In this document: piece after piece, positions 5,956-63,946 of the stretch
Layout: each line of letters begins with the position of its first letter
Numbering within the stretch: the stretch's first letter is position 1
DNA from: Eledone cirrhosa
Lineage: Eukaryota
Direction: 5' to 3'
Length of the DNA stretch: 64,000 nt
Assembly: GCA_964016885.1 (NCBI GenBank)
Contig: OZ024740.1
Span: 86,366,001-86,430,000 of the forward strand
The notes under the pieces: generated by a model
What the model was told of the DNA's origin: nothing
Database searches by the model: none
Seen by the model: only the letters and a program-made list of their open reading frames with translations
Position numbers and translations under genes: made by a program

Positions 5956-8900
5956 ACGTAGGAAGTGTGATAAGGAACCAGGTGGAGCATAACGCACCAA
6001 AGTACTCAATACTTAGGGTAGTAGAGTGGGTAATAGGAACGAGTAGGACCCCGACGGCTGAGCTCAAGCCGTTTCGACGGCTAATTCTGGACTAAATGAA
6101 AATTTTTATCCTGGTATATGAATAGCCGAGCTTCTCAGGGGGTAATTCCATATATAGTAAAAGTGATTGTCACAAGGATTGGTCAAAAGTTTGTTGTTGA
6201 GACACAATATTCTATCATGGCAATTTGTGGAAGGAAGGGGTAGCTGAACCTGCCAGTAGAAGAAAGAGGGAGAGGGAGTGGAGGAAACCCAGTCGTGCGT
6301 TAATAGTGCCAACTACAGTAGGGCAGGAGGTCAAGCAAGTATACTAGGGAGGGGGAGGAAGTCGAAACAATAAGTAAATCAATATGGAGTAAATATATAG
6401 AAGAATACCAAGAATGTTAAGAATATAAAAAACAATTTCTGGTTACTATTACCTAACCACAGTCATCAAGTCTCTCACTGGTACTGCTAAACTATAGAAA
6501 AGTTTACTAGGTGGGACGGAATTGTAGTGAGACCATTTTAAGAGTTAGTAGTAATCAACCGAGTATATCTTACGGTGAGAGGTCAACAAGTGGGGGGCCA
6601 AAATACTAAAGAAACTACCACGAAATAATAATTCAGAGTCCCGAAACTAATACGAAATAATTGTTTCTACCCTAGGCACAAGGCCAGCAACCACCCAGTG
6701 CAAAAAATAAACTAATACGAAATAATAATTCAGAATTCCGAAAAGTTTCGGGACTCTGAATTATTATTTCGTGGTAGTTTCTTTAGTATTTTGGCCCCCA
6801 CTTTTTGACCTGTCACCGTAAGATATACTCGGTTGATTTCTACTAACTCTTAAAATGGTCTCACTACAATTCCGTCCCACCTAGTAAACTTTTCTATAGT
6901 TTAGCAGTACCAGTGAGAGACTTGATGACTGTCGTTAGGGAATAGTAACCAGAAATTATTTTTTTATATTTTTAACATTCTTGGTATTCTTCTATATATT
7001 TACTCCATATTGATTTACTTATTGTTTCGACTTCCTCCCCCTCCCCCTCCATAGTATACTTACTTGACCTCCTGCCCTGCTGTAGTTGGCACTATCAACG
7101 CACGACTGGGTTTCCTCCACTCCCTCTCCCTCTTTCTTCTACCACACACTGATCAGGAGCAGCCGAAACTCCACCTATAAAAAGGCTAACCACATCGAGG
7201 ACATAAATCGAGATGGACAACAAATTACCTCCAGCCTCGGGGTTGCCGACCGCACGGAACCCCTAGACCCACGGACACCCTACTTCACACTGAAGGACCA
7301 CAAATCCGATTTCGACCGTAAACCTTCTATCAGGCTTATAAACCCAACGAAGTCCGACATAGGGAGAATCAGTAAAACAAATCCTAGAGGGCGTTATACC
7401 AAAAGTTAAGCAACACGCCAGACTTAGCCTATGGGTCAACACCCAGGAAGTAATCTCATGGTTCAGCAATATGGAGGACAAACGAGACACAAAATTCATC
7501 CAGTTTGACATAGAGAGTTACTATGCTTCAATTACCTTACCGCTACTTACGGCTGCCTTGGACTTTGCCGAGACACTTGCGGCCATCACGGACCAGGAAA
7601 TAAACATCATCCTCCACGCCAGGAAGACAGTCCTACTTTTCGACAACTCCAAATGGATAAAGAGAGCTCCCGACTCACCCTTCGACGTCAGCATGGGCGC
7701 GACGGATTCGGCTGAGGTCACAGATCTTATAGGATTATTCCTACTAGTTAAACTCACCGATATGTTTCCTGCATTCGGCGGTCGATTGTACCGTGATGAT
7801 GGGCTCCTTACCCTTAAAGGGTACAACCCCAGTAATACAGACCGGGTCCGTAACAATTAATCGGCTTCTTCCGCGACTGGGGATTTAAAATAACCCTACA
7901 AACGTCCCTGACCCGAGTAAACTTCCTGGACGTTACCCTTGACCTCGATAATGATCTGTACTACCCATACAGGAAACCTAACGACAACCTGCACTACATC
8001 CACCGCCGGTCAAACCATCCCAGGAACATCACTAATAACCTGGTTAAAAACATCTCCCTCCGCATATCTCGTTTGTCCGCTAATGAGCAGATATTCGAGG
8101 AACATGCGCCTTATTACAACCAGGCCCTCAAGCGGAGTGGCTTCCGGGAGGAAATATCCTACTGTCCAGGTTCCATTAGCGGAACCAGCAGGCGACACCG
8201 CCGCTCACTCAATGTAACATGGTTCAATCCTCCCCACAACGCCGAGGTGACAACTCCTATCGGGAAAATCTTCTTTAGGCTCATCGAAAAACACTTCCCA
8301 CTACAACACCGCTACCACAACATAATCAACAAAAATACCATCAAACTCTCCTACAGCACCACACCAAACTTTGCACAAAACATCGTCTCCTCTAACAACA
8401 AAAAACTCAACCCCTATGGAAGAAATAACCTAAATAGCAGTGGAGAGTCGACCAGGAGGTGCAACTGTCCTGATGGATCCATTTTCCCCCTCGACAACAG
8501 ATGCAGAGATCGTAATGTGATCTACCAGTGCAACGTGAGGACGGACACCTCTAACAAAGCTTATATAGGATTAACCGCATGTGACTTCAGGACCCGGCTA
8601 TACCAACACAGACATACTTTCCGAAACCCGGCCTGGCGTCACGCCAACACACTTTCGGGCCACATCAGGGATCTCAAAGATAACAATATTACCTATGATC
8701 TCACTTGGAGCTTACTGTCCAGAGTCAACTCTTACACGGGAGGACGCCGTCCGTGCAATTTATGCTCGGAGGAAACTTTACAAATGCTGTTTCGACGGAC
8801 CAACTCCTAAACAAGAAAGACGAACTGGTAATTGCATGCAAACACAGATTGCGTAGGACTTACCTCGCCCTCAAACCCCATAATGACCCGGGGGTGGGGG

Positions 8901-10155
8901 TGGGGGGTAGACAAGGGCTGTAACACCGCACTTGCCGACTTTGTAATGGGTAACCCCTGCTTGCAAAGGTAGACGTAAGATCTTCTTTTATATTTTTTTA
9001 TCGTTTCCTCTATATTTCCTTCTTCCCCCCATCCCTTCCTAGTCCTTCCACCCAGTCCTCCTTCTTTGTCGTCGTCCTTTTCACTTTCTCGCCCACCCGA
9101 GGCAGCCCCTCGGTCCTTTGTAGCCTCAGTACCCCCACCCCCATCCCCTATTCTATGATAGAATTGGCCGACTCCGCTTTTTATAGCAGATGTGATAGAC
9201 CCCAGATACTTGCTTTCTTATCCGATGGCTGCCCCATTTCCGTGCTTTCTACATTTTTTAGTGGTATCTCTGCTTTAATTTCTCGTATATCAGTATTTTC
9301 TTTTTTTTGGGGGGGGGGGGGATTCTGAATTAATTTTCCGTATCAAATTTTTCATATACTTCGTACGAGCATTTATGTAGTTTGCACTAGAATTTTTTGT
9401 ATCGTAGCGGCACCCTTAGTATTAGTATTCATTTTCGGGATTCTGAATTATTATTTCGTATTAGTTTATTTTTTGCACTGGGTGGTTGCTGGCCTTGTGC
9501 CTAGGGTAGAAACAATTATTTCGTATTAGTTTCGGGACTCTGAATTATTATTTCGTGGTAGTTTCTTTAGTATTTTGGCCCCCCACTTGTTGACCTGTCA
9601 CCGTAAGATATACTCGGTTGATTACTACTAACTCTTAAAATGGTCTCACTACAATTCCGTCCCACCTAGTAAACTTTTCTATAGTTTAAAGTACCAGTGA
9701 GAGACTTGATGACTGTGGTTAGGGAATAGTAACCAGAAATTGTTTTTTTATATTTTTAACATTCTTGGTATTCTTCTATATATTTACTCCATATTGATTT
9801 ACTTATTGTTTCGACTTCCTCCCCCTCCCTAGTATACTTGCTTGACCTCCTGCCCTACTGTAGTTGGCACTATCAACGCACGACTGGGTTTCCTCCACTC
9901 CCTCTCCCTCTTTCTTCTACTGGCAGGTTCTTCTACTGGCAGCTACCCCTTCCTTCCACAAATTGCCATGATAGAATTATGTGTGTGTCTCAACAACAAA
10001 CTTTTGACCAATCCTTGTGACAATCACTTTTACCATATATGGAATTACCCCCTGAGAAGCTCGGCTATTCATATACCAGGATAAAAATTTTCATTCAGTC
10101 CAGAATTAGCCGTCGAAACGGCTTGAGCTCAGCCGTCGGGGTCCTACTCGTTCCT
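5956..10155 (+). mobile_element. Penelope-like element 1, 5'-truncated and frameshifted; inverted pLTR (5956-6744) + partial direct pLTR (6746-7140) + ORF remnants (about 7145-8870) + 3' pLTR; in (TA)n
   Basis: RT motifs FTLKDHK, RLINP, FIQFDIESYY, FDVSMGATDSAEV, LYRDDGL, NFLDVTL, YRKP..SNHP; WFNPP; CNC-x5-(F)-x5-C linker; GIY-YIG VIYQC..YIGLT; CNLCSEE. Motifs resemble Hydra-group PLEs (from memory, needs a tree). Confidence 0.93.
10047..10142 (+). ncRNA. Type I hammerhead-like motif in PLE1 pLTR, variant core CUGAGA(A)
   Basis: Stem I ACCCC/GGGGT; stem II CGGCTA/TAGCCG; GAAA; near-palindromic stem III ACGGCT..AGCCGT; GUC site 10135-10137; near-identical inverted copy at about 6047-6144. Confidence 0.75.
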
Positions 10156-63333: not shown

Positions 63334-63869
63334 ATATAACTGCTCTGTAGAACAACTGATGTTATTACATTGAGCTATTTATCTTACTGGTAATAAGGTA
63401 GTAATAAATTACTGACCTTCACTGTTTAAGGTTTAAAATATACATAACTATAAAAAGTTTAAAATATACATAACCATAAATAGTATCCTGATTATTATTA
63501 TTATTATATATATATATATATATATATATATATATATATATATATATATATATATATATATATATATACTATAAAGTAAAGCATGTCCATAGAATTATTT
63601 GATAATATATATACATCATTTCTTCTCCCAATTAGCATAATTAACCACACAAAAAATCAATTAGACCAGGCTATAAGATTAAAAGGCACCTATGAAGAAA
63701 CAGTAAATAAATATACGATAGCAGCGTCTTCGCGGCCAACCGCTATAGAATATCTACCCAACATTTCAACGGCACATGGAAATTAATTATATATACGGTC
63801 AACCATACACAATTAGGTTAAAATTAAAGTTAGAAATGCTTATATACATACCAGGATTAAATCACTAAA

Positions 63870-63946
63870 TCCCGACCCATGGGTTTCGTTCTCATTTTGA
63901 GATATCCTATTAAGGATAAATCTCGAGTTTCGAACTCTTCAGGGGA
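63870..63946 (-). ncRNA. Type I hammerhead ribozyme in a probable pLTR running off the window end
   Basis: TCCC-CTGAAGA-GTTC-[hairpin insert]-GAAC-GAAA-CCCATGGG-TC-GGGA. Confidence 0.88.

Follow-up and report, generated by a model that had tools for sequence, protein, structure and literature searches.

Coding Penelope-like elements and non-coding hammerhead units with a common insertion layout in the (TA)n tracts of Eledone cirrhosa

In this study, we analysed a stretch of 64,000 nucleotides of the Eledone cirrhosa genome (3.0 Gb), which corresponds to positions 86366001-86430000 of contig OZ024740.1 (GenBank assembly GCA_964016885.1; hereafter the window) and is rich in (TA)n tracts, and we propose that the foldback insertions next to these tracts are coding Penelope-like elements (PLEs) and five non-coding hammerhead ribozyme families of the type of retrozymes that lack long terminal repeats (LTRs; non-LTR retrozymes), likely copied by the same Penelope enzymes (our probability for this reading is about 0.85). 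Ten repeat families, F1-F10, were followed through the genome in the 30 best genomic loci for each of nine queries and in 20 loci for the tenth. Eight of these families (F1-F7 and F10) have two fixed outer ends, A and B, each of which is followed by (TA)n, and their inner ends are scattered. An inverted arm was found in 127 of the 232 distinct loci, with the two arms ending at A and B in 88, at the same end in five, and with one end disrupted in 34.

Coding and non-coding foldback families

The first coding family, F1, is a Hydra-type PLE (5956..10157, plus strand) whose open reading frame (ORF) is in pieces (7363-7860 and 7854-8810); its inverted arm (5956-6744) has a 77-nt tail up to end B, its direct arm stops at A, and the foldbacks in its 30 loci comprise 14 A+B pairs and no same-end pair. 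F5 (36287..39058, minus strand), a Neptune/Nematis-like PLE by its motifs, is 5'-truncated and has an inverted arm and a tail of ~38 nt. A preliminary description of this DNA had ascribed an inverted layout to two coding PLEs, and F1 and F5 do both bear the inverted arm and the tail. F6 (62683..63500, plus strand) is a 5'-truncated foldback of a coding Hydra-type PLE with a tail of ~135-160 nt and two hammerheads with a U4C core (62723-62769, minus strand, and 63247-63293, plus strand), and in locus L271 this family runs ~2 kb upstream into an ORF with reverse transcriptase (RT) and GIY-YIG motifs. In the three families together, 5' truncation, the inverted 5' copy and the one-sided tail were accompanied by 34 A+B pairs and no same-end pair.

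The RT and C-terminal GIY-YIG-type motifs of these ORFs were read from their translations, the frames of which are broken in the window; in the Pfam search, RVT_1 stayed below the cut-off in F5 and F1 and F6 gave no match. A comparison of F1 and F6 with the features of the Hydra clade revealed DKT (in locus L276) and no CCHH, with CxxC and CxH flanking E and N in both families and the last Cys of the CxCX5C linker replaced in the copies examined. As judged by these motifs, F1 and F6 are Hydra-clade PLEs. They resemble the EN+ PLEs of this clade (Craig et al. 2021, PMC8557442; here and below, cited papers are represented by the parts of their text that were available) in the C-terminal GIY-YIG, DKT, the CxC linker and CxxC/CxH around E and N, as well as in a terminal-repeat hammerhead, here of variant core, the (TA)n targets, the inverted 5'-truncated copy and the one-sided tail. 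However, the published tails measure 30-40 nt, compared with 77 nt in F1 and ~135-160 nt in F6, the non-coding end of which spans ~1.7 kb, and the hammerhead cores also differ, being U3-A8 or C3.A8 in F1 and U4C in F6. In the terminal repeats, hammerhead motifs with variant cores were found in F1 and F6 and none was found in F5 (0/30 loci).

Several minor observations concern these coding families. In the F1 repeat that lies partially upstream, the sequence passes at window position 7142/7143 directly to mid-ORF and leaves out the hammerhead and the start of the ORF, by a deletion or a template jump. Besides F5, locus L283 contains three ORFs, which include another Hydra-type PLE in which the CxCX5C linker is intact and a presumable mariner-like transposase. 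In loci L005, L006, L023, L194 and L372, the F1 ends lie directly within the TA tract that closes an F4, F5 or F9 copy, and these families pile into each other's TA tracts.

The families F2, F3, F4, F7 and F10 are built of head-to-tail units of 445, ~556, 487, 687 and 546 bp, respectively, with one type I hammerhead per unit (the tandems of F3 are partial only), and the region upstream of the hammerhead wraps into the unit. More than one unit, wrapping round, was present in 87 of the 146 arms, dimers and trimers exist (loci L006, L012, L073, L178 and L261), and a PLE ORF within 400 nt upstream was found in none of the 146 arms. The units showed no PLE protein match, and their longest stop-free frames encode 69-110 aa. 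F2 forms a foldback at 24977..25879 (plus strand; hammerheads at 25243-25285, minus strand, and 25638-25680, plus strand; a trimer occurs in L073) and a single arm without a foldback at 13660..14007 (minus strand), which ends at B and contains the hammerhead at 13935-13977 (minus strand). The F3 foldback (27091..27684, minus strand; hammerhead at 27371-27445, minus strand) has a long arm to B and a short arm (27616-27684) to A, and the F4 foldback (32667..33255, minus strand; hammerhead at 32744-32825, minus strand) extends from A at 32667 to B at 33255. The F7 foldback (63566..64000, minus strand; hammerhead at 63869-63947, minus strand; locus L151, with a multimer in L178) has its inverted arm ~50-320 nt beyond the window end, and the F10 foldback lies at 46524..47540 (plus strand; a tandem occurs in L261).

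By their sequence, these five families fit the non-LTR retrozymes of metazoans (Cervera & de la Pena 2020, PMC7229834; Li et al., bioRxiv 10.64898/2026.07.22.740005), which are likewise non-coding, are arranged head to tail with a single type I hammerhead in every unit and are also alike in their GC content (35-37% in the four units measured here). The published units measure ~220-390 bp, whereas those described here, which are known from DNA alone, measure 445-687 bp, are mostly dispersed as insertions of one or two units and have the PLE tail and the 5' inversion. A search for RNA runs that contain F4 listed none. Two further non-coding tandem hammerhead units with a 5' inverted arm were found at L331:1167-2351 (592 bp, U3-A8) and L315:5632-6099 (467 bp). 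Just 3' of end B, F4, F7 and F10 have a common box that ends in GCTGCTATTTCTAG-like letters, and F4 and F7 have the word CCC.TAAGGT.GAG; both are candidates for a promoter or a protein-binding site. The octamer ATGCAAAT was found upstream of the cleavage site, at a distance of 118-161 nt, in three of seven units (F2, F3 and the L315 unit, two of which are related), and we assume it to be a candidate for a promoter of the small nuclear RNA type. The foldback at 33365-33829 of the window belongs to another repeat family and has within it an 82-bp internal palindrome and a 111-bp piece of the neighbouring F4 unit (33586-33696); this piece possibly reflects a template switch between families or a capture from adjoining DNA.

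Ends A and B and the origin of the inverted arms

The distance between A and B is characteristic of each family: ~38 nt in F5, 56-70 in F2, 77 in F1, 97 in F3, 103 in F10, 111 in F4, 117 in F7 and 135-160 in F6. Because the tails of F6 come in two lengths with the same end sequence, end B is probably set by sequence and not by distance. Seven of the nine A/B sites of the non-coding units end in at least three alternating T/A letters, compared with 8.9% of positions. The non-coding families provided 54 A+B pairs and all five same-end pairs. A replication set of 40 further F10 loci, which were chosen by an exact core 19-mer, yielded 14 A+B pairs, one same-end pair and 13 disrupted ones, with 28 head-to-head junctions and one tail-to-tail junction. 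Among 34 arm junctions, 21 showed an overlap of 1-12 nt, six were blunt and seven were gapped. This layout is the published tail signature of PLEs, whose insertions have an inverted 5'-truncated copy, a one-sided tail and TA targets (PMC8557442), and the architecture itself is thus already known; moreover, opposite-strand hammerhead pairs 100-700 bp apart have already been seen in schistosomes (PMC4209133). What appears to be new is its extension to retrozymes, the longer tails, a very high number of motifs and a G3-C8 hammerhead core.

Foldbacks of this kind, with long and near-perfect inverted arms beside TA, might be miniature inverted-repeat transposable elements (MITEs) or other cut-and-paste elements with terminal inverted repeats (TIRs) that insert at TA and contain hammerhead-like words by chance, and automated annotation could mislabel them as MITEs. 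In a genome sample of 80 evenly spaced 10-kb stretches (0.8 Mb), TA was present at both arm ends in 11 of 111 foldbacks and asymmetrically in 46, and one foldback of the window, that of F8, has fixed ends. However, the termini of F8 are of the Helitron and not of the TIR type, and fixed symmetric terminal repeats with a target duplication were found neither in F8 nor in the eight families, in which arm length and spacer vary in every copy, many copies are one-armed or head-to-tail multimers and hammerheads occur far above shuffles. Fixed symmetric TIRs are excluded because of the A+B pairing (88:5), the head-to-head order and the scattered inner ends, and the variable inner and asymmetric outer ends refute the cut-and-paste origin for the eight families, which leaves it extremely unlikely as a general explanation. 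The preliminary description had suspected that many apparent TIR elements of this genome are mobilised as RNA, and the arm ends agree with this, being PLE-like, with inner ends that vary by copy and two unequal fixed outer sites in (TA)n.

The same description regarded the foldbacks as non-autonomous PLE passengers. An opposite view is that all hammerhead foldbacks are the 5'-truncated ends of coding PLEs and that separate non-autonomous families do not exist. This holds for F1, F5 and F6, and in the genome sample, a PLE ORF was found within 3 kb of 14 of the 81 hammerheads with room upstream, including two copies of the largest hammerhead cluster (21 of 116 motifs). For F2, F3, F4, F7 and F10, on the other hand, the arms that wrap into a unit of 445-687 bp, the dimers and trimers and the lack of a PLE ORF upstream contradict this view, and we consider it improbable. 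The term passenger is therefore appropriate for five of the nine foldback families examined, those with non-coding units, and not for the coding PLEs F1, F5 and F6 or for the Helitron-type F8. As a general rule it finds no support: the foldback at 62683-63500 is a truncated coding PLE, two of the 21 copies in the largest sampled cluster have a PLE ORF upstream, and an intact hammerhead was found in only 41 of the 111 sampled foldbacks. The last two results also caution against over-reading the genome sample.

Tracts of (TA)n are unstable, which would favour a single-copy insertion whose mirror arm was added later by fold-back repair at a fragile (TA)n tract or by an assembly artefact. In line with this, when arms were compared with their partner and with 11-29 other copies, the partner matched best in 16 of 41 cases. 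However, the tail at B could not have been copied from a direct arm that ends at A, yet the inverted arm is at B in about half of the pairs. Moreover, the arms differ by 1-11%, and the control, a family of short interspersed elements (SINEs), showed no abutting inverted pair in 89 copies, so that a later origin of the mirror arm is hardly credible. The non-coding units might also have spread without PLE enzymes, by priming of the type used by long interspersed elements (LINEs) on circular RNA or by local satellite expansion; the published model leaves the helper as 'LINEs or PLEs' (PMC7229834), and multimers are compatible with a circular template. However, the copies are spread across many contigs and lack a poly(A) end, and the two-site tail with the 5' inversion is PLE-specific according to PMC8557442 and PMC11167929. 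Such a route is, in our view, very improbable.

If, as we prefer, Penelope enzymes copied both the coding PLEs and the retrozyme units, a PLE protein with RT and GIY-YIG domains would cut a (TA)n tract on both strands, and each DNA end would prime reverse transcription, one at RNA site A and the other at site B, probably aided by the pairing of a few nucleotides to UA words in the RNA. Both complementary DNAs would stop at random and would then join, often via a microhomology of 1-12 nt, and the product would be an inverted duplication that has a tail on one side only. From its place near the 3' end of the unit, the hammerhead would reduce multimeric transcripts to single units, and the cutting of multimeric RNA is probably its role. 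The likeliest helpers are PLEs of the Hydra type, in view of their own long tails and their TA targets. A similar course was described in vitro for PAc, a Poseidon element of the green anole (Frangieh et al. 2024, PMC11167929), in which two RT start sites set the tail as the distance between them, both strands of the AT-rich target are cut and extended, and the start site is not homologous to the target; here, by contrast, the start sites coincide with short UA words, and the A+B pairing was counted per insertion in eight families, including the non-coding ones. Together, the A+B tail and the 5' inversion mark individual insertions in a way that points to PLE enzymes, and the 88:5 pairing limits the ways in which PLEs can employ the two start sites, namely one per DNA end. 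The paper that named the animal retrozymes called their mobiliser open, and its available text does not contain the word 'inverted' (PMC7229834), just as the available text of Li et al. (bioRxiv 10.64898/2026.07.22.740005) does not contain the word 'tail'; no report of retrozymes with the PLE insertion signature was found in the literature searched.

Several results weigh against this reading. The loci were the best matches to each query and not random copies, and the first F10 query contained the tail, which biased the direct ends to B. In F2, four same-end pairs stand against seven A+B pairs, and its A end lies within a TA-like stretch inside the unit. Foldbacks do not require the ribozyme, nor does the ribozyme suffice for them, because F5 shows the layout but no hammerhead and F9 a core but no such layout, and hammerhead mutants had no effect on insertion in vitro (PMC11167929). 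The priming of PAc without target homology differs from the UA pairing proposed here (PMC11167929). A comparison of the non-coding units with the three coding families gave a single 14-nt match, so the helper is not named by sequence. Finally, a pile-up of the 5' ends of complementary DNAs immediately 3' of the upstream cleavage site was considered as a sign of cleavage in vivo: in the first loci, F3 and F10 together had 14 stops and two read-throughs (at the first site 1 versus 21), and F2, F4 and F7 had five stops and 17 read-throughs, with the families grouped after the F3 result was obtained. In the 40 new F10 loci, there were one stop, three read-throughs and eight stops farther away; the pile-up was not replicated in F10, the only family covered by the retest, and it was dropped as such a sign.

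Hammerhead cores and their abundance

A structure descriptor detected six perfect-core type I hammerheads in the window compared with 0.1 +/- 0.3 (maximum 1) per shuffle in 40 block-wise dinucleotide shuffles. Four unrelated families, F2 with three motifs and F3, F4 and F7 with one each, account for all six, and the CUGANGA / GAAA / UH core with stems I-III recurred in 24, 27, 19 and 20 of 30 loci of F2, F3, F4 and F7, respectively. In an Rfam scan of the window (E<=5), the 150 of 235 matches listed were microRNA-type and other weak ones, all below the gathering score, and no hammerhead family was among them. When the RNA folding of the motifs was compared with shuffles, only F10 stood out clearly, with a z of -4.7 (0/200), compared with -2.1 in F4 and -1.3 to +0.4 in the other seven.

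The preliminary description had named hammerheads at 13935, 25638, 27371, 32744 and 63870, all of which have perfect type I cores. The one named at 10047 has all three stems (10047..10142, plus strand; mirror at 6048-6143, minus strand), but its core, CUGAGAA, is a C3.A8 mismatch variant; in this F1 subfamily of the window the Watson-Crick 3-8 pair is broken, and nine of 12 F1 copies met outside the query loci have a U3-A8 core. Similarly, the motif named at 62724 is the F6 hammerhead, the core of which (CCGAAGA, U4C) is a variant and a family trait. Of the proposed motif at 38769, just the half with GAAA and stem III is present, in antisense orientation to the ORF, and CUGANGA is absent from 30/30 F5 loci. 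Regarding the degenerate motifs, that at 16391 lies outside its foldback element and, like that at 28020, had no further copy among the examined loci, and a hammerhead core is supported at neither of these two positions nor at 38769. The motif at 24736 is a decayed half-motif with two distant relatives, and that at 23165 comes from a decayed member of a family in which the core is mostly intact, stem I is missing and no foldback was found in 20 loci. The foldbacks around the hammerheads are real, except that the hammerhead at 13935 is in a single arm whose supposed partner, 11.6 kb off, is a separate insertion.

A seventh hammerhead family, which had not been listed before, is F10, whose type I motif (47183..47274, plus strand) has a G3-C8 core (GUGACCA), a stem I of 9 bp, a stem III of 9-10 bp and A17. 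This core was found in 31 of 35 matched F10 motifs, and the exact core 19-mer occurs in 235 copies genome-wide (control 0). Homologous units that are 74-81% identical to F10 bear U3-A8: 12 F10 motifs have G-C and four relatives have U-A, and at the 3-8 pair and at two pairs of stem I both partners are replaced in a compensatory manner, with 99% of the cells paired. This covariation effectively amounts to one divergence between two subfamilies and not to 12 events; the motif folds as predicted, and, judged by covariation alone, this hammerhead is probably still active. In print, G3-C8 was found only as an engineered rescue mutant (PMC11167929, PMC8495972, PMC3884650), which partly restores cleavage in vitro as a double mutant (PMC11167929, PMC8495972) and is less active with C17 than with G17 (data not shown there; PMC3884650); the A17 of F10 would avoid a G3-C17 mispair. 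No natural G3-C8 hammerhead was found in the literature, although Lunse et al. 2017 (PLE hammerhead variants), Przybilski & Hammann 2007 (3-8 pair) and paper supplements, which were outside the search, may report one, and there was nothing on it in the available text of PMC13282606 (where 'ribozyme' is absent), PMC6155905 and PMC6765202. Known natural core variants are U3-A8, which is common here (27 of 116 sampled motifs), and U4C, which F6 shares, and F10 differs from these by G3-C8 (PMC3088659, PMC4209133); U4C was reported as tolerated in a viroid hammerhead (PMC3088659). Searches for CUGANGA miss G3-C8 cores, and a natural G3-C8 core, if true, widens the known sequence space of hammerheads.

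The genome sample, with 10 shuffles as the background, contained 86 canonical, 27 U3-A8 and three U4C distinct motifs in 36 sequence clusters compared with 0.1, 2.5 and 0.2 in shuffles. The 3-8 pair was C-G in 77 and U-A in 20 motifs, and each of the other 14 combinations occurred 0-2 times. The enrichment of hammerheads in inverted repeats that the preliminary description had expected was observed, with 51 of 84 lying within a foldback span compared with 33.2 +/- 3.5 for matched random points. An inverted copy was present 5' of 34 and 3' of four of the 84 hammerheads (controls ~7% and 6%). Its proposed targeting of TA tracts is also borne out by the outer ends of the eight families and by the distance to the next 3' TA run, the median of which was 57 nt compared with 413 in the control. 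One 15-mer of stem I and the core had 81,230 exact genome-wide matches (298 for the reversed pattern), and the sample, which predicts 104,853, is thus ~1.3-fold rich. After correction, the genome total is ~2.5 x 10^5 canonical and ~3.4 x 10^5 motifs overall (extrapolated from the sample; the bootstrap gave a range of about +/-30%). No precedent for a count of 2.5-3.4 x 10^5 per genome was found in the literature searched; up to 120,000 retrozyme copies were reported in the axolotl and ~5,000 hammerheads in a mussel (PMC7229834). It is possible, at somewhat less than even odds, that three statements hold jointly: that the hammerhead population of this genome, with some quarter to third of a million motifs, ranks among the largest known, that the enzymes of Hydra-type PLEs copy numerous unrelated retrozyme RNAs through paired priming at two sites defined by sequence, and that F10 is a natural active hammerhead whose G3-C8 core has until now been known only from an engineered rescue mutant.

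Other repeats of the window

F8 (15412..16384, plus strand) has A|TC...CTAG|T termini and no hammerhead, and we take it to be a Helitron-type non-autonomous element by these termini and the absence of a target duplication. Its 3' end is a fixed 445-bp palindrome (15939-16384) that is conserved across copies; the 5' end was found in 23 of 30 loci, preceded by A in 22, and T follows the 3' end in 29/29. It resembles non-autonomous Helitrons in the 5' TC, the 3' CTAG and the A/T flanks, and differs in having this palindrome in place of a hairpin of ~16-20 nt. F9 is represented by a decayed copy (23100..23281, plus strand; left boundary approximate) with AATAAA, a hammerhead core that lacks stem I, and a single fixed end, which lies in TA, and an inverted copy was found in 0/20 loci. 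The SINE-like control family (~190 bp; 89 copies in 0.8 Mb) occurs in the window at 12935-13121, 14050-14239, 22086-22279, 30744-30929 and elsewhere. Additionally, broken LINE-type RT elements were found at 42152-45351 (APE, RT and zf-RVT), 49832-54547 (two RT elements of another type) and 55804-59131 (APE and RT, minus strand).

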